DNA of 23,528 nucleotides, taken from assembly GCA_010093815.1 (NCBI GenBank), contig ML996595.1. One strand, written 5' to 3'. Source of the stretch: Pseudovirgaria hyperparasitica. Taxonomy: Eukaryota. The notes beneath the pieces are model-generated. The model ran no database searches, was not told the origin of the DNA, and worked only from the letters and a program-made list of their open reading frames with translations. Made by a program: the position numbers and the translations under genes. Below are positions 515 through 23,444 of the stretch, in pieces. The number at the start of each line of letters is the position of its first letter. Within the stretch, counting starts at the first letter, position 1.

Positions 515-944
515 TTACACGGGCCTAGGCGGTAACCATGCACGACTCTTAGTAGAAAAACTAGGTAGTCGAAAGACACCGTAAGGCAGAGTCGAAAGGC
601 AGCCCTTCCCACGCCTATATCCGAATAATTTTTATATATTAAGAAATCGCATGGTCGAAAGTTATGTCTAGCTAACTTATAATTATTATTTTCACGGAGG
701 GGGTGGCGAAGAATATACATGAAAACTACACATTTTTCGCGATTTTTACTTTGATTTTCCCAACCGTGCACGATCGGTACCTAGGTATACTACACGCCAA
801 CCTACGTATACGTCTAAGGACCTTAGTAATCCTTATAGAATCGCGTACTCTAAGACACCTCTAGGATCGCTAATTCTAATCCATTCTACTACTCACGAAC
901 TTTATAAGCTATAGCACCCCCCTTAGTACCGCTTCCTAATATAG

Positions 945-2650
945 ATGGTATACGTTAAGCATGGGACATTATATTTAAACTTTTCCCTATCGGCGGGAGC
1001 GATAGAGCTTAAGCCGTCTTCTTCCGACCGTTATCGTTTCCTAGCCCGCCACTATTTATCGTACGATTACTAGAGGCAGCGGCTCGTTAGCTGAACGAGT
1101 AATAGATTCTAGCCTATTTACACGTTACTAATACGAATAATAACTCGCCTAATAACGATAAAGAAGACGATTTCGTTCCTAACACATGCCTACCGCCTCC
1201 GATATCTCCCCTACCCTCTTAATAATCTTATATAACTTCTAGCACCACGGTAGCTCTTCGTATAGTACTAGCGTAACTAGAGATAATAGTCTATAATACT
1301 AATTAAGAGCGAGAAGAGGATAACGAAGAAGAGCGTTAGTCTATATATCCCCCTAGAAAGCGGCGCCGTAACGATATATCTAACTAGAACGAATAGTTAA
1401 CTACGAGAACTCCGCTAACGACCACGAGGGTAAGTAATAAAATCCGGGCTAAGTTAAGAGTAAAGCATGAGGCTATGCTTAGGGAGGTTATGGAGCCATT
1501 TACTAACCCCGATAGCCCGTCATCACGGAACGAATATAAAGCATAGCTCCGTGTAAATGTAAGTTATCTTCGTTAGATAGGCATATTATAACACTTCCCT
1601 AAAGATATAAATATGGTTAGATAACTTCTTAATCGCGTATTAGAGATCGGTTCACCGTTAACGCTACTTTACTTTAGATTACTACTATAAGAATAGCGAG
1701 ACGGTAAGACGGTAGACATAGCGCCTCATAGCCTTAATCCCCTATAGATTATTATTAGGGATACGACGTTAACTAGGGAACGCTTAGTATATACATTTAT
1801 AGACTAGGCTAGTATACTCTACTTTAAGATCGTTAAGCTAGTACATACATCGCGTCTTATCGGGATTAGACGTCGCCTAGCACTCGCGGATATATATAAA
1901 GCTATAAACGCTACTAAGAAGGCACTAAAAACAGACCGTACATTTACCCTTAGCACTAGGCAAGGCATCCGGTTAATTATGAAGGCTCGCCTATATGCCC
2001 GTATTAATTAACTTATAGGAGATCATGCGCCAAGTCTAGAACAACCGTAGAACCTAGATATCGATATATGTATATAGTAAGAGGAGGCCTTTAAGCGGAT
2101 AAGACAGTGGAAATAAATAAACGATTAGTTAAGTTATAGCGCGCACTAGGCGTTAATCCGCGAGAGGTTTAGCGACGGGTTATTCGTTCTACTACCACCC
2201 GAAATTACGGACTCTTTCTTCTAGAAGATAAGGGTTAGTATACTAGAGGACTTCCTAGGCCTCGTAGACCGATGTTATCCATGGCTTAGACGACTTTATT
2301 ATAGTATTAAGCCATATTTACATTAGATTTTAAATGGAGACATTACGCTACCTAGGCAGTTCCCGATCGAGAGAATAACCTTAGAAAATATTACGAATAT
2401 AGCGCTAGAGTAGTTTATAAATCTAATTAACCTATAAGACCATAGCCTAGGGCTAAGTACACCATAGGACATGCGCACTATAGATAATAATAAGGTAGAT
2501 TAGAGAATAAAATACACTAATTTAGTAGCGACTATACTAATAGTAGAATACCTTAGCCGAAGATCGGGGCTAGTAGTAGCTATTGATTTCCTACGGCACG
2601 GCCGTCGAAAACCAAAGGACCTAAAAACTCCTTACTCTAGAGCCGTCTAG
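945..2650 (+). pseudogene. RIP-inactivated gene of unknown function (ORF1); boundaries approximate, probably spliced
   Basis: Protein-like frame at about 1140-1430 (acidic/Pro-rich, RKRRR) and about 1628-2650 (includes *ALIRERFSDGLFVLLPPEITDSFF at about 2147-2221), with mostly RIP-type stops. Intron-like gtaagt at about 1430 ... actaac ... tag at about 1515. Confidence 0.55.
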
Positions 2651-2745
2651 AATCGCCGTTTCTACACCCATCTATAGGAATATAATTATATGTATTATAG
2701 TCTACTCCCGACGCCAACCTACTAACACTATATAAATATATATAG

Positions 2746-3482
2746 ATGTCCGTAGATTTACCACTAGTCGTCGACCTTAACACCGGAGTAATTATCTATC
2801 GAGATTATAAGCGCGCCATCCTCCTATCCGCACTAGACCGCCACCTCCTTTAAGAATACCGAGGAATAAGACCGAAGTATCGTAAGATTATTAAAAGCTA
2901 TATTTACTCACTTAGTTATACCGCTACTATAATCGACGACCTTTAAATACCCGCTGCCCTATCACGGCCTATAAGGTATATTCCGGTTAAGAGAGGGTTC
3001 TAATACATTATTAAGAACTACGGATTAGTTCTTGGCCTTTTAAAGAATCTTAAATCATATATTAAAAACGAACATATAGCGTTCTTTAATGGGCGTAGAG
3101 GGGCTCCACCTAGAGCGGACGATAAGACACGTGGATATAGAGATAATGTACCATACTAATGCCTATATAATATAGGCCGGTTGAACCGCCTTATCCCGAT
3201 TGTAATACGTACCACTACATACACTCGTACACCAATTAACACTATACTCGATTAGCTCTAGTTAAATTAGTAGAACGTCCTTAAAGACGAAGGTCGTATA
3301 GTATAAACCGGCGCTATCGACGAAGTTAATCCATGGCTAGAACGTATAAAATTCATTAAGTACTTCCAAGGTATGGATGTCCTTATACTTACTAATATCC
3401 TAGAGGTGCCTACCGAAGGGCCGCTAAAGATAGTATCGTCTAGTCTAAGAGTTCTATTCCACTAAGCCCATGAGACAGTAGG
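2746..3482 (+). pseudogene. 5' part of the Zn-finger/YR-like/RecQ helicase gene (DUF3505-like C2H2 N-terminus)
   Basis: ATG at 2746. II[C]RD[C]KRAI..ALDRHLL.E[H], GF.[C]....[C]G...[H]IKNEH and EVNPWLER (brackets mark de-RIPed residues). The frame rejoins at 10872 once the Gypsy and one TSD copy are removed. Confidence 0.8.
3478..3482 (+). repeat. 5-bp target site duplication GTAGG (partner at 10867-10871)
   Basis: Identical GTAGG immediately outside both LTRs. Confidence 0.95.
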
Positions 3483-3710
3483 TATAAGAATAGGGTTATT
3501 AGATAGTAGTATAGCTAGATGGAACAATGGGGTGTATTCTATTATAGAACGAATTACTACCGAACCCTTTTGGTAGGAATCCGAGAGTATATATATAAAG
3601 GGACGCCGATCTATCTAGCACGTAACTATTTACCGCCCTTCACGTTACCTCCTAACCCTATTAGCTAAGGTACGTGTAGGTCGGGTCCTACCTAAGGCTA
3701 AGTCCTAATA
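3483..3710 (-). repeat. 3' LTR
   Basis: Direct repeat of 10639-10866, adjacent to the PPT. Confidence 0.95.
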
Positions 3711-3726
3711 ATTATCCCTCCCCTCT
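3711..3726 (-). promoter_or_regulatory. Polypurine tract
   Basis: AGAGGGGAGGGATAAT on the - strand, abutting the 3' LTR. Confidence 0.85.
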
Positions 3727-4194
3727 AGAAAGCTACCCTTAGCGACCTAGATCGTTACCTATCCCTATATCTCTATCCTAAGTCTCGTAAGACCTTAGTC
3801 GTTCTCCACGCTTTATCTTAGATACTTACTAATATTCGCCGATCTAAGATTCATATAAGCGTTTTCCTAATAAACTAGATTTTATCCATCTTAACTTCTT
3901 ATATAGGTGAGATTGCCTAATTAGGCCTAGCGTATCACGTGATATGATTAGGTAAGCCCGGGTGCTACCTATATTAAAATCTTTTCTTAGAAATATTCCT
4001 TTCTTTAAAAAACTTCTTAACTCTTTATAGAGTTTTTTAGATTATTAGGTATATTACCCGATCCTTATAGACATAGATTTATATAGATTTACTACTATTT
4101 AGTGCGATTTACGTAATTTACTAATTTTCGTACCGTCCTTAGCTAGAAATAACATAATTCGCAATAATCCGTATAAATTAATAATAATTATAAT

Positions 4195-5176
4195 ATGGTT
4201 TCCCGAAATCTCGACGCTCTAAAGTAATTAGCGCGGAAACAGGCGCCTTCGAATAATCCCTATCTTATATACGTTACCGACATGTCGAAAGCCATTAATC
4301 TACCCCAACCTAGGCCGGGCTCTAATAATCTAGCTATATATTATTATGGTTGTCGCTTTCCGTCGTACATTACTCACGGTAGTACTAAATCTATAATATA
4401 CGGTACTTACATAACCAAGAAGCGTTATTACTTATAGGTATTTAAGTAAGTTCGAAGAACTTTACGTAGATTTACTTATATTAGTATAGATTACTACTAG
4501 GCCTCTAGTAACCCCTACTAATAAGGAGCGTGGTACCACCGATCGCAACGCCTTAGAGAAGGCTTTCTACGAGCTATATACCTAAGGTAAGGGTTACGCC
4601 TAGGAGTACGATTCTAATAAGATCCATAAGGGTTTATCGGAATCTACTATAGCTATTATTACCGCGATTACTAGGTAATATCGTTTTTCTTAAATCGTTA
4701 TAGATTCTTACTAATATATATTAATCTCTATAATAGTACTAAAATCTCTGCCACTTCGGACTTCTTTCTACACACCAGCGATATTAAAATTCCTAGAAAA
4801 GGTTCTAGTAAAAAGGCTAAGGTTCCTTCCTCGCGCGTGCTAAAGAGCCGTAAATTTAGGGAAGATGGCTCTGATCTGGAAGTTTCTATACTAACGGTAT
4901 GTGGTTCTATACCGATCGTTGAATCTTTTCGCTGATTTATATAATTCTTAGCGTGCCCGCGCCGGTCCGTCCCTCTCCGTCCCGGGTTCCGCCGCTCTAT
5001 AGGTTTCTATAGAGGAGTTTATAGCTATAAGGCGCGCTATATAGAATTTATAGCGTCGGAACGAAAGGCTAGAGACTTATATTATAAAGCTCTATACTAT
5101 GCTAAACAAGAACTAGCAGAAGGAATTAGATGTAACCATCGCGGTAATTAGTACTTCTACTCCTACTCCGACTTAA
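4195..5176 (+). pseudogene. Extra antisense, intron-containing gene inside the retrotransposon (possible Cys-rich N-terminus, coiled-coil-like C-terminus)
   Basis: ATG at 4195 (MVSRNLDALK.LARKQAP). Clear 55-nt intron at 4897-4951 (GTATGT...GCTGAT...TAG) that joins frames. Probable intron at about 4675-4724. Unexplained frame change near 4441. Stop at 5174-5176. Confidence 0.6.
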
Positions 5177-5532
5177 TTAGTTTAGATCTATACCGATCGG
5201 TACTAATATATCTCTTTTATCTAGCGTTTTGGTTTTTTCGGTTTCAATTTTAAAGCGATCTTACTTCTTCTAGATAGATTAGTGCGAGTTTATATAGATC
5301 TATATAGATCTTTATATTTTCTTTTAGCTTTCTTAATTTCATCTTTCTTTAATAATAACTTCTTTAATCTCTTTAGTAATCTATACCGATCTATACCGAT
5401 CGGCACCGATTTTCGATGTCTATTTCTCTTAGTGAATCATTTTTCTAAGTCTCTTTTTTAGTTAAATTTTTTAAAGTTCTAAGTTTGAACTTTCTAAGGA
5501 AGTTCCTCAATTCCTTGGAATATTTTAAAGAT

Positions 5533-8500
5533 CTATGTCTCTTTCACCTTCTTCCTTTTAGGCGGCCGTCCTCGGCGCCGAACTATACTAAAAAACGTCG
5601 AATTACCGTACTTTAGTATAATTCTCTGCGATTCCGCGGCTTCCTTTGCTAATCGCTACTTATATACTAATATCGCTACTTTACTAATGTTTATTACAGG
5701 TTCCCAAGTATCTTCGTTAGGATTATACCCTTTCTAACGAATTTTATATAGCCACGTGCTATCTTCGGCACGTTATTAGCCTAGTATCTACTTAACTTCG
5801 TAGATATCCGCACCTCCTTACGTAACTACTTTATGTAACGTCTATTTAGAACGATCCGGTAACGATAAGGCATGGAATGGCTCGAGAAGCGTAATATAGA
5901 ACACATTGTGTATCTTTAACGTGGGAGGGAGTTTTAACTCATACGCCTAGTTATTAATTACACGAGTAACCTTAAATAGACCTATCATCGTGTAGTTAAG
6001 CTTCTTCTTCGGCCTGATACTACGAATATTTTTGCTATTTAGTAAAACTTTATCTCTAATATTAAAGATCATGGGCTTTCTACCCTTATTATAGTGCGAT
6101 TTACTATAATCTATAGCATCTTATAATAACTTTATAACGTTTCTTTACGTTTAGAATAGTTCTATTATAATCTCCGTCGCCTTAACGTTAGGCTACTCTG
6201 ATTTATACTAAGTTCCCATGAACTACGCTTTATGGTTTTAACCGAAGTTTACTTCGAACGGACTTACGTAGGTTAACGTATGTCGGCTATTATTATACGC
6301 GAATTCCGCGACATAGACTAACCTTACCTAGTTATCTTGCTTATAGTTGTAATATGCGCGTAAATACGCCTTAACTATCTAATTCTACCGCTCTATCTAC
6401 CTATCTGTTTATGGGTGGAACGCGGTGCTAAGTTTCCGCTTAATTCCTAGTATATAGTAGAAATCCTTCTAAAACTTAGACGTTATCTACGGACCTCTAT
6501 CCGAAACTATGCCGTTCGGTATACTATAGAGCCGAACTACGTCACGAAGTAGTATATCTATAAGATCCGGTACTTGGATCGTCTTTCTTATAGGGATATA
6601 GTATAACATCTTTATAAATCTATCTAGAACTACGAGTAAACTATTATAAACATGCCTAAGATACTTACTTAGGGGTAGATCTATGATAAAATCCATCGAT
6701 AATTCCTTCCATGCTTCCTTTGGCATAGGTAATGGCCTTAATTCGCTATATAGCAAGTGTCTATGCACTTTCGTATGCTGGCAAACGTTATACGTTTTTA
6801 CGTAGTCTTTTATATATTTATAAAGACCTAGCTAGTCGTACGTCCTTCGGATTAAATCGACCGTCCTTATAACGCCGAAGTGCCCTACTAACGCGTAATC
6901 GTACTATTCCCTTAAAACATCGATTCGTAAGCCGCCTTCCGGCACGTAGAGTCGGCCTTAGAAGTAGATCGCGTCTAATCGTCGTTCCCACCTTAATAAC
7001 CACGGCGGTTCTATAGCTATTCCCTTTATACTTATGACTTTCTTTACTAATATATCGGAATTCTAGGTAGATTTAATTAAGTCTTCGAGGATTTACTCTG
7101 TTTCTTAGACGTTAGTTTAGATTACTTAATGCCCGCTCTAATTCCCGCGGAGAGTCGCCGAAAGTGTCCTAGCTTCTAGCACTCTATTAGATAACTAGTC
7201 TTTTAGTATCCGTAGTATAGCATAGTCTAAATTACACCGACTATCTACGTTATTCTACGACGATTTCTCGTAATCTTCACGCCGTGATAGAGGATCTACT
7301 TTATTCTCTCTTCTAGCTTTATATAAGATTTTAAAGTCAAATATTAATATCCACTTAGCCTAACGTACTTATCGGCGATTAAGGACCTTAGTTAACATAA
7401 AGTAACGTAGATTTGCGTAATCCGATAACAATTCAATCTAATATACGGAGCCTTCTAAATAATATCGCTATTGCTTAAAACTCTCGATAATTATGAGTAG
7501 TTCCTGGTCGTGCGTATTATAACGCGTCTCTACATCCGCCATTTTACGGGAAAAGAAGGCGACCGGGTGCTATTATACCTTGTCTTTCATATCTTTATAC
7601 AGTTAACTAATAATTCCAGCAATTGCGAATCTAGATGCGTCTATTTCGACCCGAATGTGCTTCTCGGGATCGAAATGCCTAAGAATCGGCGTAGTTATAA
7701 AGTAATTCTTTAACGATCGGAACGTATCTCGCGCTTCCGGCGTTAACTATATCTCGACCGACTTAGCTTTGCGCTATGCTCGCCCACCTATGGGGATTTT
7801 ACCGCCATTCTCTATGAGTTTATTAAGCGGCGCCGTAATTCATAAGAAACCTATAATAAATTTACGATAATAGTTCACGAAACCTATAAACGTCCTGATT
7901 TAACGTATAGTAGTAGGTTCTAGCCATTCTATAATGGTCTTGACACGCTCTGGCTCCATTTTAAGGCCGCTGTGTGTTATAATAAAGCCGAGAAACCCAA
8001 CTTCTTATTAGTGAAACTTATATTTAGATAACTTTACGTAGAGTTTATGCTATCTTAAACGATTTAGTACCGATTTCACGTGTTCTTCGTGATCCTACAT
8101 GCTATCGGAGTAAATTAGTATGTTATCGAGGTAAACTACGTAGATCACATTAAGTAATCCTATAAGTATAGTATTAATGTATCCTTAGAACGCTCCTGGC
8201 GCATTTATTAGCCTAAACGGCATAATAGTATACTTAAAATAACCATATCTAGTCCGAAATGCGGTTTTCCACTTATCTCCGCGACGGATTCGAAGCCGGT
8301 AATATATATCTCGCAAATCTAGCTTCGTAAAGTACTTTGCCTTCGTTAATTAGTCTAAAGATTTACTAACTAACGGTAATAGATAACGATTCTTCTTAGT
8401 TACCGTATTTAGTACTCGATAGTCGACGCATAGATATAAACTTCCGTCTTTCTTCTTCACGAAGAGAATAGGTGCGCCGGCTAATGACGTACTATAATGT

Positions 8501-9300
8501 ATCTAGCCTCTTCCGAGATATTCTTCGATATATTTATAAAGAACTTCGAGTTCTAGTCTCGAAAGTAGGTAAAGTAGACTATAAGGGACGTCTACTCCCT
8601 CTTCGAGCTTGATCTTTAGCTTATACGGTCTATGGTCGGGGAGAAGTAACGCGTCTCCTACCGAAAACACATCCGTGTACTGCGAATATACGTCGGGTAG
8701 CGTGTCTTTACCCCGATTATTACTATCCTCTTCGTCTTCGTCGACGATTAATAGGGATATAAGGTAGATTAGCGATAATCGGGTCCGCACGGCGAGGTTC
8801 CATGCCTCCTTACTAATGGTTGCGACTTGCTAGTATAATTTACCGCGATGTCGACGGAACGTTAATGTCTCCTTCTAAAAATTAAGGATTGGATTTAGAC
8901 GTTTAAGCTAAGGCATCCCTAGAATCATATTCTATTAGCTAATATTAGCCACGATGAATTTATTAGATATCTACTATTTTATTATCTTTAAGTCATGAAC
9001 TTCGTAATTCGTTATAGTTTTACCTAAAGTTCTAACTTTATGTCCATTAACTACGATAGTTCGGCTAACTTTACCGAGATCGTACGATAATCTACACTCC
9101 TTGGTAAGAATCGACGAAATATAGTTATCTTCTACACTAGTGTCCACGAGGGCCTATATAGTTTTATTACTATTTACTATGGGTAACGATACTTTTAGTA
9201 ATATTAGGTCTTTACTCGCCGGAAGGCGCTACGGCTTCTCCTAAGTATATATAATTTAGCTAAGAACGCGGTTAGGTCTCGCGTACTAGCCTATTCTTTT
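5533..9300 (-). pseudogene. pol: pol: protease, reverse transcriptase, RNase H, integrase, chromodomain, AT-hook
   Basis: All motifs are in one frame: ALVDT (D at 9144), VVYLDNILIY (Y at 8133; RIPed YLDD), WKELSMDFI...IVSDRG in the integrase, YKIR*KGYNPNEDTWEP at about 5750-5700, and RRRGRPPKRKK before the TAG at 5535-5533. Confidence 0.95.
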
Positions 9301-10604
9301 TTCGGATTCTTATAGTTAGGCGAAATATATCCCTTTTCTCTATACTTATAGTAATAAAGTGCGCTATGATCCTACTATTTTGCGATAGGCGTTATATTTA
9401 AGCCTATGCCTTATCCTTTTCCGCGTTAGGAACCACCGCCTTAATTGTTTCGGTGTCCTCTTAACGCGTTTCTACCCCGATTTACGCTCTTCTAGTGTTA
9501 ATCGCGGTAAGGTTACTCTTGATCGAACGTATTCGATCGACCTCGTTTCTAACCCGTGTGGGGTTCGTTAGTTTTACCTAGAGAGCCGCGTTCCTTAAGG
9601 ATGCGGTAGTGTTCGTTAGCTTTCTCCTCTAATTCGTATAGATAGTTAAAACTTAATAATACTATTCCTAATCTTTCGTGGATTAACGGGAGTAGTGCTT
9701 CGCGAAACTAGAATATACAAATATTTTCCTATAGTGTAGGGATATTATCCTAGAGGTTTTATAGGTATTATAGTAGTTAAGTAGGTGTCTAGTTCGGTCG
9801 TTATACCACGCTTCTTAACTTAGATAGTGCCTTTCTTTCGCGTTCTCCGTTAGTTCCGAGGGTATTTAGTATAAATATAGCTAAATGTTCCTAGGTTGTC
9901 GCCGATAGTGGCTTGACTTCCTTCTATCTATTCTATTGATCGCGGGATTGTAAACCTAAGTAACGTTCTCCGAATGAAATGCGTTATGCTTCGGTAGAAA
10001 AGAGCATAGGGTTATTAAGGAAGTACTTCTCGCAGTCTCTCTTCCAATCTTTCTACTTCTTTTGGTTCTTCCCTATAAATATAGTCGGATCTTTAGGTTT
10101 TAGCACACCTAAGGAAGGAGTAGGGTAAATCGGCAACGAAGCGGCCGGGTATACGGTAGATTATCGCAACTCTAATGGTGGGTGAACTAATTCCGCCTAA
10201 ATTAGTATAGGAAGTCGTCCATCTACTATCGTTCCGCGTAGTCTTTTAAGAGACTCGTTAAGTTCTTATCGTTTTACGAGGAGTTTCGCACGTTCGGTCT
10301 ATTCTTTAAGGATCTATATCTCTCGGGCTTGATTAGCGATATGCTCCTGTAGTTCGGCGATTAATGGTTGCGATTCCTTGTGTAGCTCTACCACGACTCG
10401 TTGTCTAGCTTCCTATCGTAGGAAGTCGCTTAGTGTATCTACTATTTCCTTATTAGAAAGTTCCGTGATTCGGTCGGACATCTCCACTTCTCTATTAAGA
10501 ACGGCCGGATTTAATACCGATTATAGAGAATCCCTATTATTTAATGTAGTGTTACTTGTCCCTATAGTGGATCGTGTCGACCTTCTTAGTTCTAGTTAGA
10601 CCAT
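9291..10604 (-). pseudogene. gag: gag with CCHC zinc knuckle
   Basis: ATG at 10604 (MV.LELRRSTRST) is in frame with the TAG at 9293-9291. RIPed [C]YK[C]REKG[H]ISPN[C] at 9353-9312. pol is in the -1 frame, with an A6 run at 9302-9297. Confidence 0.85.
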
Positions 10605-10627
10605 CTTAACTATAGTACTATATAGGG

Positions 10628-10636
10628 AGTAATTCG
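10628..10636 (-). promoter_or_regulatory. Self-priming-type primer binding site
   Basis: Starts 2 nt inside the 5' LTR boundary and is the exact reverse complement of LTR positions 10706-10714. Confidence 0.7.
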
Positions 10637-10638
10637 AA

Positions 10639-10866
10639 TGTAAGAATAGGGTTATTAGATAGTAGTGTAGCCAGATAGAATAATAGGGTGTATTCTATCA
10701 TAGAACGAATTACTACCGAACCCTTTCGGTAGGAATCCGAGAGTATATACACAAAGGGACGCCGATCTATCTAGCACGTGACTGTTTACCGCCCTTCACG
10801 TCATCTCCTAACCCTGTTAGCTAAGGTACGTGCAGGTCGGGTTCTACCTAAGGCTAAGTCCTAACA
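10639..10866 (-). repeat. 5' LTR (least RIPed copy)
   Basis: TGTAAG...CTAACA ends, 228 bp, TATATA at 10744-10749. Confidence 0.95.
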
Positions 10867-10871
10867 GTAGG

Positions 10872-13800
10872 CGCTTATAATAGACTACTATGTCTAGAAG
10901 TAGCGCGTTCTATAATAGAGCCCGGGCTATAGCGACCTCTCGCACGTTATTAGAACTAGAAAATATTCCGCGATTACTCGAAGCATCTTTAGCGTCTTAT
11001 TATCGGGGCCATCCAAGCGTACTAGAATCTCTACTACCTCCCGGCTTTAGTCTTTAACGCTAAGACTAAGGCGTGTATTACTCGGCTTCTAGACTACATT
11101 ACTACGGAACAGCCATCCGGCGAGAGTAATAGTAGCTCCGACTCTAAACCCGAGACGAGCGTAACCAACGACTATCGTAGAGTAGAAGGTAATCTTAGCG
11201 AGTGGGATCTGGAAACACGTCGGGCAAAACTATACGAGGTGTTTAGTATCTAAACCCGCCCTCTTTCTCGCATCGCCTACCTTTATATATAGCTTATTAT
11301 TGTATTACTACGATAGACGCTATATATATACTCATTCGAGGCCGCACTAGTCCTATTATCCGGCCTACTATATGTAGATCGAAACGGGGGCTTCCTTTCA
11401 CCATAGAACTATACGTCTACTCTATTAGTACTTATTAAGTTCTCCCGCCTTATTATCCTTGAGTGGGCCATCTAGAAAGTCTTCTATAAGTAAGCGGGTA
11501 GTACTATAGATGTCCTCGGATATCTCTCACCATTTATTAACTAGTATCTCCTCCGCGGTAGTCGCGGTATAGTTGGATGGTAGATATAACTTAGAGCTTA
11601 CGGTCTTAAAATCGTGGGTAACACAGCCATAGACGCAAAGATATAGTAGGTTAATGATATACTTACGTATAATGCATATATAATTCTAATGAATGTATTT
11701 AGAGGGATGGTCTCTAGCTTAATAAATCGAATAGCGCGAACATTATACACTAATATTCTTCTACTATCTTCTATAGAGAGAGTACTAGTAATCCTATAGT
11801 AGTCACTTACGGATAATACGGCTGATAACATAATCGGGTATAGCTTCCTTTAGTTAGCGTGCCTCTAGAAGTAGTCCTCATGGTTTAGAAGGCGAGTTAA
11901 AAAGGACTAGAATATATAGTTAGCGTTCTTTACTAGAGGAGAGTTAGATACGTAAAAAGTATAAGACTAGCTTAAATAGATTCGAGTCTTTCTTAGTTAG
12001 CTACTTATCCTTATCTATATAATAGCTAGATAGCCTATACGTGGACTAGAAATCCTAAGTATACGGTACCGTAATACGCGATAGGGTGATATACGTAATA
12101 TTATTCTTTATAGTAATAAGCTTTACATTATAATAAAGTACTATAAAGGGTATACACGTAAAGGAGATATCCGCCTAATTCTTCGATATCTACCGACGGT
12201 CGTATATAATATTCTAATATGGTATCTTTGGTTGGTCATCCTGTGGAAGGAACAACTCGAGAGATTCATAGATCTAACATAGATAGTCGTCCCTACACAT
12301 ATATGGCTATCGCCGTACTAGACTAGCAAGCGTATAAGCCATGCGATAAGGGAATAGATACATCTTGGTATAGGAGTAGTTAATATAGGTATCGCAGACT
12401 ATCGTTAAGTCGCGATTGTAATTATAAAGCGTAAGCTTTAGAAGTACGAGATTAACCATGTAGACGAGGCCGATAAGGATAGTCTATAGGACGAGGACTA
12501 GAATCTGGGTACCCGAGATAATAGTCTAACCGCTATCCTTAATAAGTAAGCTGGTTATAGTATAAAGATTGTCTAGATCGCGTATAGTTATAATATAAGT
12601 AGCCCGTTTAGTGCGGTAAAGATAGTAATAGAGAGGTACTTCTAGGTTAGTCGCGCATGGTAGCACGAGATCGGGGTGCCTATGTTCGATAAGGTTACGC
12701 CTAGCTAGACGCGAATTTTATAAGCACGGGCTTATTATTAGGCTATACTCCGGGAGAAGGACCCGTATAAGGCTATTAAGGTCGTACTCCGTAACGAAAA
12801 CGCTAGAATACGACCCTAATAAGAAAAGGTATTTACCGGGCTAGTCGAAGGCCGTAGTCCGATACTAGTTATATAGCTAACTACCTTAGGTAAAAGTCTA
12901 CCTTTCATATTAGCTACGTTAATGGTACTAGACGGAGTAATACTAGTTATTATCCCGCTAAAGGCCCTTCGAGATAACCTTATCCGCCGTTATCATAATG
13001 GTAGTATTACTATAGAAGTATTCGACCCTACGCACCCCCCTCACGGGACGTCTATTATTATTATTACGCCCGAGTCTATAAAAGGCGAACTGTTTATATA
13101 GTTCATGAACTATATAAACAGCCTAGGACTACTCGACCGTGTGATTGTCGATAAGTACCACTATATTATTATTAACGACTAGTTCCGGCCGGCCTTTCGC
13201 GACATCCAAATAATGGTCGACCTAGAGGTGTAGATTATACTCCTAAGTATAACCCTGCCACCTAATAATGAAGTAGGGCTATGGAAAGCTATACGTGTGA
13301 ACGCTAGAGATATGTTTATCTACCGCAAAGCCATAACTCGGCCTAATATTACGTATGCGCTTGGGAGCCTATCTAAGAAGGCTCGAGGTACCCGTAGTTA
13401 AGCGGAATACGTGCGACGTGTTAGATAGGGCATTACCGGTAGATGTCTCGTCTTTACGCCTATGGTTATATAAGCTATTAGCCTCGTAGGGGAGCTTAGT
13501 TACGATATATACTATCGAGAGAGTATAGCTAAGGAGTAGGTCCTTAACGGATTCATCGCCGAAGAAGAAGGTATTATAGTTACTATAAACGCTCTCGGCC
13601 TAGGTGTTAACCTAGCTGCCATTCGCGTCGTGATACACTTAGGCGCTCCTTCTTTATTCCTAGACTATATATAAGAAAGCGGCCGGGCCGGTCGCGACTA
13701 CCTAACGAGAAGCCTCGCCATCTTCGTAAAGATAGGAGAAGCCACTACTAAGGACGCGATAATACTTACTTATATAAACTAGATAGGGTGTCGTAGGGTG

Positions 13801-14775
13801 TTCCTAGACGAGTATCTCGACGGGTCGTTTAGTAGAAAGAGCTGTGACGGGGTTAAAGAGAAGTGCGATATATGCGATCCTACCCTATCGACATTTCTAC
13901 TATATTTAGAGACCCTCTAGGAGGATCTAGAATTAGCGATTCTAGACCTTCCTAGTAGCTCGCCCGTAGGTTCCTTAAACAGTTAACCCGACCTACTCTA
14001 GACCGATTAACCGTCGCGCTAGCCGCCTTATACGTGGAATAAGATAAAACGAGCACGTGTATATAGTAATAGTATAGGCGAGGTAGGAAGACCAGCGAAA
14101 GGGCGGGTATTAGAACTTTCTAGTGCGCGTCTAGACGAAGATTACGTAGGCGAGGACACTTATAATTAACGAATGTTTATATAACAATAGTCTATGAAAC
14201 TAGTAGCATAAGAACGTCGTCTATAAAATAGATAATATATAAGTCTCGTCTAGTTATTATCCGAGTAGAGATAATGGTGGGCTAGTTATTACGATGTATA
14301 TAGTACTAATAGTAGAGTCTATACTACGCACTACTTAGATAATAGACGACTTATAGACATGGTTAAGCGTATACTAGCCGACTAAATGCGAAAGAGTAAT
14401 GTCATGCCTAAATACGTGTACTACTTCACCTATTACTAGCTATAAATTCTATGTCCGTGGTAGGAGCCTAGACCGGAGGGATAACTAGGGTTCCGTCGGC
14501 TCCCGGGAAATATTAAGTATATATAGAAATTCGGTTTATATCGAGCTCTTAGCGTAATAGTAGTCCACCTATCTAGACGATAGGCTACCCGGTTGGAAGG
14601 GTTTGGAATTTCGAAAACGGGCTAACTACCAATGGTAATAAGAGAAGGTGCATGGGACTCTAGTAAATTAGCCCGTTAGCTATAGCGTAAGCGGCGAGAG
14701 GGGGCGTATGAAATTATGAATGCCATTCTAGAATTTAATTAGGGCACTCCACTAGTTGTAGATGTTAGTCGATAG
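10872..14775 (+). pseudogene. 3' part of the YR-like/RecQ-family helicase gene (telomere-linked-helicase-like)
   Basis: Single frame. YR-like motifs: PIRGLEILSIRYRN (R at 12040), KYYKG (K at 12145), ADYR*VAI (R at 12403), *AG[H]S...IAY (12547-12585). RecQ motifs: GKS (12889), IITPES, VIVD[EC]H (13150), ALGLGV, [Q]ESGRAGRD (13672-13698), and the RQC zinc motif CRR...C...CDIC (13789-13875). The end is approximate. Confidence 0.9.
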
Positions 14776-15073
14776 GGTCGGTGGGATTTATAGTTATTAT
14801 AGTTTAAGTCTAGAAGTATATAAAGTCTATAGAGCATCTTAATACCTATAGGTAACGTCCGTAAGTTAGTGCTCTTAATCCACGTCGCCCTATGTTAAAT
14901 AGAATATAAAGAGGGAGACGTAAAAAGGATTCTCCTAGTAACGTAGTTGCGCATTTAGTATAAGAGTATAAGAACTAGGATCTATAACCTTAACTATAGG
15001 GCACCCTATAAACAGCGATTCCTAGAGTAGAGGCTGGAATTTCTAACAAAACCGATAGGTTAATTTACTTTAC

Positions 15074-15272: not shown

Positions 15273-18200
15273 ATGGCTCCTTTTCTTCTAGTTAACATTC
15301 AAGCATAAGAGGAAGAAGATGATAATGATTTTCTCGATCCGTTTTTAGATACAGCTACTAAAGAGATTCGCGGAACCAGAGTAGCGTTATAGAAGAAATA
15401 TACCATCTTATCCGCTCTTGTCGTAGGTAGTAGCTTAATAGGCTATAATTCTAAAGCCATGGAGCGATTTCTTAAGGTCGCTACTATAGAGGAGGAAGTA
15501 GGCGAAGTAGGAAAAGGCGCATCTATCGAGCTAAAGCCGGGAAAAGAGGCTAGACAGGAGCGTAAAAAGGAACCTAGGCTGGAAAAGGACCGTCGCCTTA
15601 GTAAGATTGCCTCTAACCTCGGAATTAGCGTGGTTAAAGCAGCCATTTTATTCTAGGATCCTGAAGTTAACGCCTTACTTAATGAATACTATATAGAGTT
15701 CTTTAACCCGCGGATTCTAGAAGGTTTACATCCGTTTAGCTAGTTTACTTTAGCTATGGAACTTATTAAAGAAGACCGTGCCTATTACCTTATAGTAACA
15801 GCCGCTAGTCGTAGTGAATAGGAAGATTACTAGTAGCACGCGTCTCTTATTCTCCGGATAGATCTTAAGCTATCTTCTAATTGTACGAATCCTCTTTCGC
15901 GAATGCGTATGTTAGAGAACGATAAATATCTTCTATTTAACGATGTACTTAAATACCGACGCCATGCCCGTAACTAAGGGTAAGAATACGAGGATAACTT
16001 TCGTATAAAAATTATCTATACTAACGCGAGGTAGATGTCTATAATGCCTCGGAAAGTTCCTACTAACTAGGTTCCCCCTACTCATCTACTAATTACTCTA
16101 TAGACCCGTCTAGGATCGACGATTATAGGCCCTTCTAAGAAAAAAGCTAGAAGGCGTTTAGATTAATACTAAGCCGCCGATAGTAACTCTACCACTAACC
16201 GGAATAGGGAACTTGGTAAGAATACTAGCGATACTATAGATTAGGACCCGATGGAAGACATCTAAGCGATAGATCCGAACTCGCTCCTTAACGTACCCAT
16301 GCTAGATGTACTAGCTATACTAGATACTACTATAAAAGAAGGACCTATGGCTGCTCTAGTAAAACTAAAACGTTCCTTAAAGCCTATAAAGGTACTAAGG
16401 AAAAAATTGCCCGAGCACCATACTAAGGCGTGGACTAATATATAGAAACGCGGTCTAAATCCATTAGGAGCATTAATAGATACCTATAATAATCTAGAAT
16501 TTATAGTCGAAGACGAGGGTATTAATATAGGCGATCGGCGTACGTTCGCTAGGTTATATCTCGAGAGTCTCCCCTCTAAAGAAGAGCTCTAGACTACGCT
16601 TACGGTAACTTATAAGGATCGTAATGTCGTTAATCCGGATTATCTTAAACTAGGAACATGTCTATACTACTCTTACCTTACTATTAAGAATCTTATAAAG
16701 GGCTTAAGCGGTACTTAAAAGATCTCCGAGATTAAAACTAACGAGATTATTCAAGTAAATAATAATAAGGCGGTAATTACCGCACGCATTAACACGGATC
16801 TTAGTAATATAGTGCTAATTATGGATCAGTTAAAGTCGGGTAGCGAGAAGAGAAGTAAACTATAGGATTGGTTAAATGACTAGAGTAATAACGGCGCCGC
16901 CTAACCATAAGACTATATTATAGCCGTGGTGGGTCTCCGAGTCACTAGTACCTAAAAACCTTAGATTCTTAATATAAATCCTAGCGTTACTCTATATTAG
17001 TAGTAACTTATAGGAGCTTAGTAGCTCCGAAAGAGTATGGATAGTTCGGTTTTACGGGGTGTAGTATTAGTAGATAGTGTCGGACTAGGTAAAACATTTA
17101 TACTTTTAGCGCACTAGCTACATATAAGTTCCTTCCCCTAGTGGCCTCTAGAATCGCCGATTCTAGACGCGCCTATATATATCTAACTAAAATGTAGTTA
17201 ATTAATAAGCGCATCGCTAATTGCGAGAAGGGTATCCTAGTATCTCCTCCGAAGCCCGCCCTACTATTAGTACCCGTAAATCTTCTTACCTAAACCGCCG
17301 AGTAGATTATAGACTTTTCCTTGCTCTTCCGTATTATTACTAGTTACGGCGATAGTAGGGTCGGAAAATCAGCTACTAGTACTACGCGTTTAGTAGGTAT
17401 CTTAATATAGAAGAGTTAGTACTTTAGACCGGAGGAGATTAACGCCCGTACTATTATCTTAATGTTCTACGCAACGTTTAACGCCCGTTATAGCCTTACT
17501 AGGTAGAGGGAGGAAATACGAGGGTACGCGGAGTTCTAGAACATTAAATCTAGAAATTAGGACGCCGTCGCATTGGTAGAAATGAAATATATAGAGAAGT
17601 AGCATTTTCTATATAATGCCCCTTGGAACCTCGCTTAGTACTTTAACTATACGGTAGCTAATGAAGTATACGGCTTCCGGAATGTTAACTCTACGACTAA
17701 CCGGTCTATCTACGAGCTTAATATTAAACACTACATCCTCGTGACTAGTACTCCCGTCTATAACTTCGCTAGTAATATATAGGGTCTTCTTAAAGTTATA
17801 TAATAGAGCGCATCCCTCGACGATTATTTTAACGGTATTTCCGGTATATAGCCGCCATTTAAGGCGAAGTCTAACCTATATAAGTTTCTATCGATAATAG
17901 TAAGACTATATCCGGACGTTTCGCAGGAAAAACTAGATCGCGTCCTAGGTATATGTCTAACTTCTCCGGCCTTTAAGTACTAGTGCCTAGGTTCCGGCCG
18001 TAATAATCCTAAGCCGCCATTAGAGCTGGTGCAAGGCTAGTGCTTAAGTATAATATACGGAGTATTTGTACTTCGCCGCACGAACGACTCATGGTATGGC
18101 GATAATAATGCTACTTTGATCCGTAACTATATTCCGCGGGCCGAAAGGGTATAGATTAAAGTAGCGTATCCACTAGAGGTGTAGGCTAAGTATAATAAGA

Positions 18201-20453: not shown

Positions 20454-23444
20454 ATGGCAGGCGATTAGAGCCTTCCAACCAAGCCAAGCAAAGGAAAAGG
20501 GAAGGCGGTATAATTAGCTCCGCCACCCGTAGAAGATACTAGACCTTCGGAACCGGCTAAAACTTCTAGATCCATACGCCATGCCTAATAGACACTTTAA
20601 GACCTAAACAATCTAGTAGGGAACAATCGTTTCTATCAATCTTATAAAAAACCAATACCGTCACGCATGAATAGCGTAAAGTTCATGGTCAGTAATATTA
20701 TATAGATACTAGAGAAGGACGTCTGTTTAGTGAACGCTACGCAGAGGCAATTAGATGCCAAGCGTTTCGGTAGCATTAACGTAGTTATCCGTAAAGGAGC
20801 CGGTCCGGAACTCGTGACCGCCCTCACAGATTATAAGGTTTTAGAATCCAAGGAAATTCTAGTAACAGAGCCATATAATCTTAATATAAAAATCATTATA
20901 CACGTGGCTATACTAACATGCATAAAGACGAAGTCGGATATAAAAAAACGTCATAACGTCCTAAGAGGTTTATACAAAAGCATCGTCGAAACTACGGTTA
21001 ATTATTAGGACCCGGATATTAGTAGCGTCGCTTAGATTCTTTATCCTATTCTCGGAATATTAAAGTATAGATAGGCTATAGACGCCGGAGCCTATTCTAC
21101 CCTTCTCGGTATACGAATGGCTTTCGAGGACTCTAATAATAATAAAATACCATTCAATATCTTACTCGTCGTGCCATTGGCGGAGGATATACTTAATATT
21201 ACACCTATTATCTAGTGGGTTTCTAATCATACGAATTACTATCATCTACTAACATCCTTTAGTATTATATTCCCGTCGATCGAAACGCGCGCCATTAAGT
21301 TTCTAGGTATATTAAATCCCGGCTTTAGTAATCCTTGGGATCAGCGATTCCAATACCCGCGCATTCGTTATTATATACACTCTATAGTCTTTCCCTATAA
21401 CCGTCTAGGATCGACGATTCTAGACCCCTCTTAAGATATACATATTCCCTATAACCGTCTACGATCGACGATTCCAGGCCCTTCTTAAGATATACATGTT
21501 CTATACTAACCGTCTACCGTAGAACTACCTATCTAATACACACCGATAACACCTCGTGTACATACGGCTCGCGCCACTAGTATTAAGTTAGCTCTATCTT
21601 AGGAAGTTTACACTAACCGTACACGTTTCGTTAAGGATATAATTAGGGATAACGTTATACATAGTCGAGCCGTAGTAGCCCGTCCTCTAGTAACTAATAA
21701 ACCATCCCCCGCGAAGAAGAAGAAGAAGAGTTCTAAGACTAAAAATACCGCCGATCCTATTATAAGTAAGACCGGTAAAACGTCTAAGACCGCACCGCCA
21801 CTTAAGAATAGTATAGTAGTAAAAGAGCCAACTATAGAAACGCTATACCCTACTACGGAACCATCTTCGGTAAAGGAACCCGAAGATAATACTAATGATT
21901 TAGGTTCTACACCTCCGCCTATAGATAGCGAACTTCCTAATAATCCGGATTCCGAACCCGATACCTCTAACTTACTACTACCGCGAACACCGTTAAAATC
22001 CAAAGCCCAGAAAGTAGTTAGAACGCCATCGAAAAGATTAAAGGTAAACCAAACCGATACCGCAAAGCCGACTAGCACTACTCTAGTTATAGCCGCAGCT
22101 ATAAAAAAGGCCAAAGCGCCAAAGCGCAAAAAAAACGATAGTAACTTTATAATCTCTAACGACCCAAAGCTTCCTAGTAGGTGTCTACGACCTTAGGCGA
22201 TAGCTTTCTTCATCAATCGACTAGTAATAGGTAAACCTATTATCTACCGCTCGGTTAGACACTACTACGTCACATAGTTCTAGTTAGCTATAGCAGAGAG
22301 AATTTCGCGTCTCGAGAATTAAGGCAAGCTCTATACTAGATTTACTTTTATCGCGAAGATTATATATATACTAGGTGGCGCTAGAGCGGGCGGCTATAGA
22401 CCCAATACCTACATCGATCTACACTTCCACAGCTCTAAGGAATACTACCGTTTGATTCCACCCTATAAGCGGCTCGAGAGACTTACGTGGAGCCCTAAAA
22501 TTCTCGTAGAGGGTCTTCGTCTTCGGCTCGCCCAGCCCGTATATAAAGAACCTAGATTCGAGACTCCTACTAATTATTAGGAGCGACAACTCGCCGTACT
22601 TCACCAACTTAGGGAGTCGCTCGGTCGTCTAATTTTCTATGATTATTAGTCTAACATTAGCTTTACGTATTAGCTCGCCATATAGTAAGTTCGGGATAAG
22701 CTAAAGTATAACAATCCCAACCTTAACCCGCCTAAGGAAGTCGACGAGAGTAACGAAGAGGATTTATTACGTCGCATAAAGCCGCCAGCCAACACCACCG
22801 AAAAGTCTTCTATAGCCGAAGTAACTATAAGGAAGAAGCGTATAGCGTCGCATAGCGATTTAAGTAAGGCCGTTAAGCGCGTTAAACTTAGTAATAAGAT
22901 ACTAGAGGAGGCACTAGAATCAGCGATTACAGACGCCTCTAAGGTTTTAGATAATATGCCCGACAACACTATACGGATAAACCCCCTAGACCCCCTCGTA
23001 GACTCTAGTACTATTTCTAAGGAACGTGTGGAATCGCCAATTCCAGGACCTTCTACGGACCTTAACCCTCCTCCTGTTTTTCCTTTAATCACGCTAACCA
23101 TACCGACCATTACTACCACGTTATCGTATACATCTCCTAAGGGCACCAATACTATCGCATCGGATAGTAAGGGTGATTCTAGGTCGCGGATCTTAGATCC
23201 ATCTAAACAGCCAACGATCGATACACAGCCTAGCATGCCTAATAGTGGCATTATCATTAACCAAGACCGGCCGCTTACCACCTAGGTATAGTATCTCACT
23301 AATTATGGCCCTTTTAAGGACGAACACGCAGTTTAAGAACTTTACTATGATATAGCGTTCCCTGGATCTAACCTAGATTTCCCGCCGCCCTCATTAGTAG
23401 ATTCGACCGACCCTAATAATATCAACATAGACTTAAGTAGTTAA
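20454..23444 (+). pseudogene. Macrodomain protein (domain at about 20676-21180) with long Lys/Pro/Ser/Thr-rich regions
   Basis: One frame from the ATG at 20454 to the TAA at 23442-23444. Motifs: VKFMV[GD]I...CLVNA...FGSINVVIRKGAGPEL...VTEPYNL..KIIIHVA...LRGLY...YPILG. Possible intron at about 21367-21522. Confidence 0.72.
21391..21498 (+). repeat. Tandem duplication, 2 x 54 bp plus a partial third unit
   Basis: ttccctataaccgtcta(g/c)gatcgacgatt...cttaagatatacat starts at 21391 and 21445; each unit carries one palindrome copy. Confidence 0.92.

Follow-up and report, generated by a model that had tools for sequence, protein, structure and literature searches.

Telomere-linked helicase (TLH) genes, which have been reported from 1998 onwards and thus for more than two decades, occur at fungal chromosome ends and are known from a choanoflagellate as well. 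In the accessible text of two preprints (10.1101/2024.02.27.582403; 10.1101/2022.03.07.483234), both of which cite Rehmeyer et al. 2009 as their TLH source, the encoded proteins are described as having two C2H2 motifs, a conserved 'TLH domain' of ~250 amino acids (aa) located just before the helicase, and RecQ motifs. The same text of the 2024 preprint (10.1101/2024.02.27.582403) treats the function of TLH genes as undetermined, gives the TLH domain no function and contains no occurrence of 'recombinase' or 'integrase'; neither word occurs in the 2025 FoTeR paper. A literature search, with subscription journals, bioRxiv supplements and database annotations outside its scope, found no link between the TLH domain and a recombinase. 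Here we describe a stretch of 23,528 nucleotides from Pseudovirgaria hyperparasitica (GenBank assembly GCA_010093815.1, contig ML996595.1), referred to as the window, in which a telomere-linked-helicase-type gene has left, at positions 12001–12600, the decayed remains of the catalytic half of its TLH domain. From its intact relatives, we consider it probable that the TLH domain adopts a tyrosine recombinase (YR) fold with an Arg-Lys-Arg-His-Tyr set and would cut and reseal DNA in a manner tied to the RecQ helicase at chromosome ends.

An earlier note on this DNA had proposed that positions 12001–12600 contain a YR-like catalytic set in the order R-K-R-(H)-Y, upstream of a RecQ domain, and every element that it listed is present in that interval. 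The plus-strand frame beginning at 10201 reads PIRGLEILSIR, KYYKG, ADYR and AGYSIKIVxIAY, and the positions of the corresponding residues are given in Table 1. The last motif had been written as AG[H]S-x7-Y; its Tyr (Tyr795) is present, but the bracketed His is a TAT codon (Tyr) in the window, at a position occupied by His in at least 90% of the relatives.

Eighteen intact proteins were found with the decayed region as the query (best E 2.6e-46), comprising eight that combine OrsD (PF12013) with a helicase, three with a helicase but no OrsD and seven with OrsD alone. An exhaustive search with P0002 yielded 4382 representatives at E ≤ 1e-3, or 2091 when the limit was set at E ≤ 1e-10, where each representative stands for a cluster at 50% identity. 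Judged by their source names, the relatives come from a wide range of Ascomycota, including Aspergillus, Alternaria, Pyrenophora, Histoplasma, Hortaea and lichen fungi, and are annotated as RecQ helicase or as hypothetical. Pfam analysis of nine intact proteins, including P0330, showed OrsD fingers, ~700 unannotated aa and DEAD/Helicase_C, and the full gene layout runs from OrsD/C2H2 fingers through a helical domain, the TLH domain and the RecQ helicase to a Cys-rich tail. C2H2 fingers, TLH domain and RecQ occur in one protein in the intact relatives, and all three are recognisable in the window, yet decayed and split. The likeness to the TLH family, which is drawn to its published description only, consists of this domain layout and of terminal TTAGGG neighbours; the difference is that the copy in the window is dead and that no telomere repeat (TTAGGGTTAGGG, with 1 mismatch allowed) is found within its 23.5 kb.

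Template-free AlphaFold2 models were obtained for two intact relatives, a 516-aa model of P0129 from alignment A2 (pLDDT 87.6, pTM 0.85) and a 366-aa domain model of P0147 from alignment A3 (pLDDT 88.4, pTM 0.88), and were compared by VIA-align with 48,161 representative chains with no Foldseek pre-filter. The domain model matched 28 chains at Z ≥ 5, of which 25 are titled recombinase, integrase, topoisomerase I or Ndc10; the remaining three (6z01, titled 'DNA Topoisomerase', SroF and MrpR) we take to have the same fold. Its best match was an archaeal Xer (4a8e; Z 11.1, root-mean-square deviation (rmsd) 3.3 over 164 aa, 16% identity), with XerH at Z 10.4, XerA at 9.9, Cre at 9.7 (17% identity), XerD at 9.4 and 9.1, and the integron integrase at 8.7. 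Type IB topoisomerases (topo IB) from bacteria (3m4a) and variola (2h7f) scored 8.1 and 7.5, Flp 6.9, lambda Int 6.5, human topo I and vaccinia topo 6.4 each, Ndc10 5.9–6.9, and MrpR and SroF 5.3–5.7, and the first unrelated chain appeared at rank 31 with Z 4.7. The 516-aa model returned the same order, its VIA-align ranks 1–13 all belonging to the YR/topo IB superfamily, and across the two models Xer scored 10.4–11.1, Cre 9.0–9.7 and topo IB 7.5–8.1. Two-domain alignments that include the helical domain extended over 226 aa for XerH and 231 aa for TelA, with an rmsd of 4.8–6.8. In Foldseek, which the earlier note had suggested as a check, recombinases headed the lists of both models: they filled ranks 1–10 for the 516-aa model (best E 0.051) and, together with topoisomerases I, accounted for 33 of the 35 listed matches of the domain model, where the best E was 6e-3 and the probability rose to 1.00.

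The candidate residues also occupy suitable places in the predicted structures. In both models the first Arg opens a short helix that follows a long helix, the second Arg is found close to the N-terminal end of a helix, and the His and Tyr are located in the last short helices; the Lys lies between strands E173–180 and E191–196 of the second model, within a three-stranded sheet. This placement, as modelled, agrees with YR topology. Both models of intact relatives thus display the fold that the proposal of a recombinase-like domain called for, and we regard it as very probable, on the strength of these predictions, that the TLH domain has the YR/type IB topoisomerase catalytic fold.

Conservation of the candidate catalytic residues was followed in A2 (89 sequences, P0129 numbering), A3 (94 sequences, P0147 numbering) and A4 (37 short or helicase-less forms). 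Invariant positions in A2 are R284, E287, R302, R332, P351 and R415, and a further 25 columns are conserved in at least 90% of sequences, including K319, K328, H451, Y460 and R462. In A3, R195, P214 and R269 are invariant and R149, E152, K182, H302 and Y311 are conserved to at least 90%, while in A4 the invariant positions are R149, E152, K182 and R269, with H302 and Y311 at 90% or more. Taken by residue and with alignment A1 included, the box I Arg and Glu are invariant in A1, A2 and A4 and reach at least 90% in A3; the candidate Lys is invariant in A1 and A4 and reaches at least 90% in A2 and A3; the second Arg is invariant in all four alignments; and the His and Tyr of H-x8-Y are conserved to at least 90% in A2, A3 and A4. 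BLASTP places R284, K319 and R415 of P0129 on R614, K649 and R735 of the window frame. The five positions fall among the 31 invariant or ≥90% columns of the 516 in A2, for which rough post-hoc arithmetic gives (31/516)^5, or ~8e-7, and the mean column identity of the A2 and A3 alignments (89–94 representatives) is 17–18%. When 18 sequences were inspected by eye, the Tyr was present in all 18 and a His nine residues before it in 16, at constant spacing; the other two (P0104 and P0331) have Tyr instead of His, as does the window. A second conserved Lys follows nine residues after the Lys of YHKGY, and either may match the hairpin Lys.

R, K, R, H and Y are thus kept among the 89–94 cluster representatives, as expected of the set that had been read in the window, and both the YR fold and the catalytic set are supported. 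Because these residues are conserved, catalysis by an intact TLH domain appears reasonably likely, judging from the sequences. What stands of the proposed 'integrase- or resolvase-helicase' is a TLH-type protein that joins a YR-like catalytic set to RecQ, as indicated by predicted fold and conservation together.

Several observations weigh against a catalytic recombinase-like domain. Model confidence is lowest, in both cases, over the acidic loop and the His/Tyr helices (pLDDT 52–72, with 54–72 for the H-x8-Y segment), and the catalytic equivalences are assigned from order, spacing and secondary-structure context. A Z of ~11 is moderate, the tool itself cautioning that values below 8–13 may reflect a common arrangement in helical proteins, and Foldseek gave nothing at E ≤ 0.001 for either model. 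The His of HxxR is absent from the family: the residue three before the second Arg, read by eye in the 18 sequences, is Q in seven, S in four, A in three and Y, L, R or H in one each, and the His is judged absent because other residues occupy the position in 17 of the 18. The earlier note, which had remarked that this His was not evident, had therefore seen a genuine family trait. At the sequence level, PF00589 and PF11917 matched none of nine intact proteins at E ≤ 1 in Pfam, and searches of PDB sequences with P0147 (phmmer) and with the A4 hidden Markov model (HMM) profile gave no YR at E ≤ 10. In profile comparisons by hhalign, the probabilities were 0.1–0.3%, both for A2 with P1 Cre and with lambda Int and for A4 with a 20-sequence Cre-family alignment (0.14% in this last case). 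YR-fold proteins that are not catalytic also exist, Ndc10 being matched at Z 6.9. Consistent element termini were not found, since direct repeats flank only 2 of the 11 loci examined (32 nt long and 5703 apart at L079; 234 nt long and 5783 apart at L063), and the further suggestion that TLH-like genes be recast as mobile-element enzymes is correspondingly tentative.

The sequence searches gave some further results. Those against PDB sequences returned weak C2H2 matches on the N-terminus only (E ≥ 0.027), and the window frame itself showed no recombinase link by Pfam. A protein-atlas lead (rank 30, score 0.85) pointed to a cluster of bacterial proteins, 17% of which carry PF00589, and was not counted as support.

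Among described systems, the Xer, Cre and integrase YRs (PF00589) are the closest. They share with the TLH domain the fold, the Arg of R-x-x-E-L, a candidate Lys between strands, the second Arg followed by a His, a further His nine residues before the Tyr, and an upstream helical domain. Unlike these enzymes, the TLH domain gives no HMM or profile match, is without the His of HxxR, has an estimated ~95 extra residues between the first helix and the box I helix as well as an acidic insert before the His/Tyr segment, and belongs to a eukaryotic protein in which OrsD fingers, and in most cases RecQ as well, are joined to it. Cryptons and Starship elements, in so far as the available descriptions of them extend, resemble TLH genes in being multi-copy fungal genes for a YR-fold enzyme. 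The Starship 'Captain' presumably corresponds to DUF3435 (PF11917). TLH genes differ from both in their fusion to RecQ and OrsD, in giving no PF11917 match at E ≤ 1 among nine proteins and in that no defined element ends were found. The comparison with DUF3435 and the protelomerases that had been recommended was accordingly negative for the former, and for the telomere resolvases the matches were weaker than those of Xer and Cre: TelA scored Z 4.9 with the domain model and 6.0 with the 516-aa model (231 aa), and TelK 3.9. A telomere resolvase is thus not favoured as the nearest kin.

The genomic setting of the family was examined in a scan of metagenome contigs in which 419 relatives were confirmed and 77 loci among them retained, most of the contigs being too short to judge telomere adjacency. 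Arrays of (TTAGGG)n occur at 4 of the 77 loci (L022, L038, L079 and L080), always on the strand of the gene and at the contig's downstream end, and the gene therefore points to the chromosome end. L079 and L080 are apparently one element from two samples. At L079, an intact open reading frame (ORF) of 1677 aa (783–5816) stops 1.26 kb short of the terminal TTAGGG array; it contains OrsD, DEAD, Helicase_C and a weak RecQ_Zn, together with the full R, K, R and H-x8-Y set. Directly upstream of this ORF, positions 595–755 hold an array of a degenerate 7-nt unit (CCCACAA, CCCGTAA, CCCATAA) that looks like a C-strand telomere variant oriented opposite to the terminal array, and short GGGTTAGGGT seeds are present at 6026 and 6731. 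At L038, the terminal TTAGGG array (10001–10989) starts 35 nt past a truncated TLH-domain match, which extends no further than residue 290 of the 366-residue query; it looks as though the chromosome had broken within the gene and the broken end had received a new telomere. Minisatellites with periods of 11–105 nt flank many TLH-like genes (L034, L036, L032, L063, L071, L061 and L075), as expected of subtelomeric DNA. L005 (8510–13120 on a 26.8-kb contig) has an 864-aa ORF with OrsD and the TLH domain that closes with a stop, and an F-box ORF comes next; RecQ is thus not always present alongside the recombinase-like module. In this intact ORF, Tyr replaces the His of H-x8-Y.

In intact members, the conserved Tyr would attack DNA to form a covalent 3'-phosphotyrosyl intermediate, after which the break would be resealed. 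The fused 3'-5' RecQ motor could feed DNA to the Tyr domain, or could migrate branched or paired DNA, so that the TLH protein would be a self-contained machine for strand exchange or junction processing at chromosome ends. Such a machine would most plausibly help the TLH repeat itself to spread and to be maintained. A role of the domain in mobility is, in our estimate, a tentative proposal that falls well short of the case for catalysis. It is likewise possible, but somewhat doubtful, that eukaryotes harbour a class of selfish elements not recognised before, whose enzymes are encoded by the TLH genes. In these elements the YR module, with or without RecQ, would transfer the element or a copy of it to chromosome ends, or would resolve the recombination intermediates through which this happens.

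A host function is conceivable for the same fold. The domain could act as a type IB topoisomerase-like swivel that nicks and reseals one strand and frees torsion as RecQ unwinds, forming a one-polypeptide analogue of RecQ-Top3 or reverse gyrase in host recombination-based telomere maintenance; of the alternatives this one survives best, and we consider it unlikely. Type IB topoisomerases have the same superfold, and their catalytic pattern is R-K-R-H-Y without the His of HxxR (the recombinase His-II), as in the TLH domain. Chains of this class (bacterial 3m4a, Leishmania 2b9s and variola 2h7f) reached Z 7.5–8.1, and the fusion to a helicase and the four telomeric loci, with the gene directed to the chromosome end, would suit a swivel. 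Against this, Xer, Cre and the integrases scored above the topoisomerases (Z 8.4–11.1), and the motifs R-x-x-E-L, R-H-x-A and G-H-x8-Y resemble recombinase boxes I and II. TLH proteins differ from topoisomerases in their helicase fusion, and no topoisomerase N-terminal domain was recognised in them. The existence of a helicase-less form also speaks against a swivel, and the very high copy number with decayed copies suits a selfish repeat better than a host enzyme.

It is less probable still that the YR fold serves as a DNA-binding scaffold only, as in Ndc10 and phage repressors, and targets RecQ to subtelomeric DNA with no cutting. Ndc10, the YR-fold protein of the CBF3 kinetochore complex, is eukaryotic and non-catalytic. 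Its scores of 5.9–6.9 and those of MrpR and SroF (5.3–5.7), the missing His of HxxR, the failure to reach PF00589 membership by sequence and the low model confidence in the His/Tyr segment would all be compatible with a scaffold. The TLH domain, by contrast with Ndc10, retains the catalytic-type residues: all five are invariant or conserved to at least 90% although column identity averages 17–18%, which is unexpected of a pure scaffold, and the catalytic YRs lie well above Ndc10 (Z 11.1 versus 6.9). That the motif order is a chance likeness in a low-complexity, mutation-degraded frame, as might be suspected from the AT-richness and many stops of the copy in the window and from a His that the first reading had supplied by inference, is extremely improbable and is contradicted by the retention of the same residues in intact relatives and by a fold search that independently yields recombinases only.

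In the window, the gene is a dead pseudogene, and therefore nothing functional is encoded in situ. The window is AT-rich (GC 0.35–0.44) and has four ORFs of at least 100 aa. P0001, the plus-strand translation of 10201–14802, has 94 in-frame stops in 1534 codons, with 11 among the 200 codons of 12001–12600. Because nearly all of these stops are TAA or TAG, as C-to-T and G-to-A decay would yield, the pattern appears to be of the kind left by repeat-induced point mutation. In BLASTP, the intact relative P0003 aligns with P0001 at E 3e-103 (27% identity, 1056 columns), the similarity to intact relatives starting at P0001 residue 232 (~nt 10894). The 5' part of the gene lies further upstream, where P0003 residues 102–271 match window frame 1 at nt ~3040–3483 (BLASTP, E 8e-7) and the weak OrsD match at ~2782–3003 stays below the Pfam cut-off (E 0.0062). 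The alignment thus runs to P0003 residue 271 at nt 3483 and continues with residue 282 at 10894, on the other side of a Ty3/Gypsy retrotransposon. In the other two frames, the sequence just before 10201 yielded no N-terminus, because the insertion of the retrotransposon moved the two halves of the gene apart, and the N-terminal fingers are now 7.4 kb from the rest. The fingers had been described as sharing the frame of the helicase; they do have the same phase modulo 3, but they are not contiguous with it, the element at 3473–10917 lying between. The RecQ core, described as complete, is recognisable but degenerate, with P0001 residues 859–1226 matching the sequences of solved RecQ, RECQ1 and WRN chains at ~1e-11. 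The helical domain that precedes the catalytic domain is possibly equivalent, in the model, to a core-binding domain; searched alone, it gave generic helical-bundle matches only.

Table 1 Features of the TLH-like pseudogene and of the retrotransposon that splits it (positions in the window).
Feature	Position	Strand	Remarks
TLH-like pseudogene, 5' part	2746–3483	+	ATG at 2746; OrsD/C2H2-like degenerate fingers ~2782–3003
Ty3/Gypsy long terminal repeat (LTR) copy	3473–3761	.	Direct-repeat family D1; flanks pol region
Ty3/Gypsy internal part	3762–10628	-	Many stops; Pfam matches
Second LTR of the same Ty3/Gypsy element	10629–10917	.	Family D1; 76% identical to reference copy
TLH-like pseudogene, 3' part	10894–14802	+	P0001 residues 232–1534
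Helical domain before catalytic domain	11245–11631	+	Maps to P0129 residues 10–136; five helices in model
'TLH domain' remnant, predicted YR/topo IB-like catalytic domain	11635–12678	+	Maps to P0129 residues 138–491
Box I-like R-x-x-E	12040–12051	+	R614 at 12040–12042; E617 at 12049–12051
Candidate hairpin Lys K649	12145–12147	+	YHKGY in intact relatives
Second Arg R735	12403–12405	+	x-[YW]-R-[H/N/E]-x-A-I-A-I-S-R in intact relatives
H(Y)-x8-Y	12556–12585	+	Y786 (12556–12558) replaces the family His; Y795 (12583–12585) is the candidate nucleophile
RecQ helicase core, degenerate	12775–13878	+	Pfam Helicase_C 3e-07

The Ty3/Gypsy insertion is on the minus strand and is bounded by direct repeats of 289 nt. 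Its Pfam matches comprise RVT_1 (1.4e-25), RT_RNaseH_2 (1.5e-21), Integrase_H2C2 (1e-10), rve (7.8e-5), SH3_Tf2-1 (1.5e-14) and Chromo (5e-4). A third LTR copy, at 189–477, is 91% identical to the LTR at 3473–3761, and the likeness extends briefly past the repeat.

Scattered over the window is a ~50-nt repeat whose core, 23 nt long, is a palindrome of two 11-nt arms and one central base; the flanks of its copies are unrelated. With up to three mismatches, the core is found at 2645–2667, 13925–13947, 17146–17168 and 21403–21425 (four sites observed versus 0 expected from 100 shuffles), and weaker sites are present at 16096, 21445 and 22900. One copy each lies 79 nt upstream of the TLH ATG, in the linker past the RecQ zinc-binding motif and in an SNF2-like remnant. 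The repeat might represent a small mobile element, or else a site at which a protein binds or recombination takes place. Other decayed remnants, of one gene or of several, are present on the plus strand at ~17100–17810 and 20730–20997; they show a GxGKT-type motif, a weak SNF2-related match (E 0.0037, below the cut-off) and a Macro domain (E 4.9e-6, above the cut-off). The pairing presumably resembles that of SNF2 ATPases bearing a macro domain.

If TLH genes are indeed the enzyme genes of selfish elements, the helicase families found in the subtelomeres of fungi and of a choanoflagellate would be mobile DNA and not host telomere-maintenance genes. Apart from that, a conserved DNA breaking and rejoining domain joined to RecQ would give TLH genes a concrete and testable mechanism, and it adds to the YR superfamily a very large, unlabelled eukaryotic branch, the 4382 representatives noted above. 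It would also matter for our view of subtelomere remodelling in fungi, plant pathogens among them.

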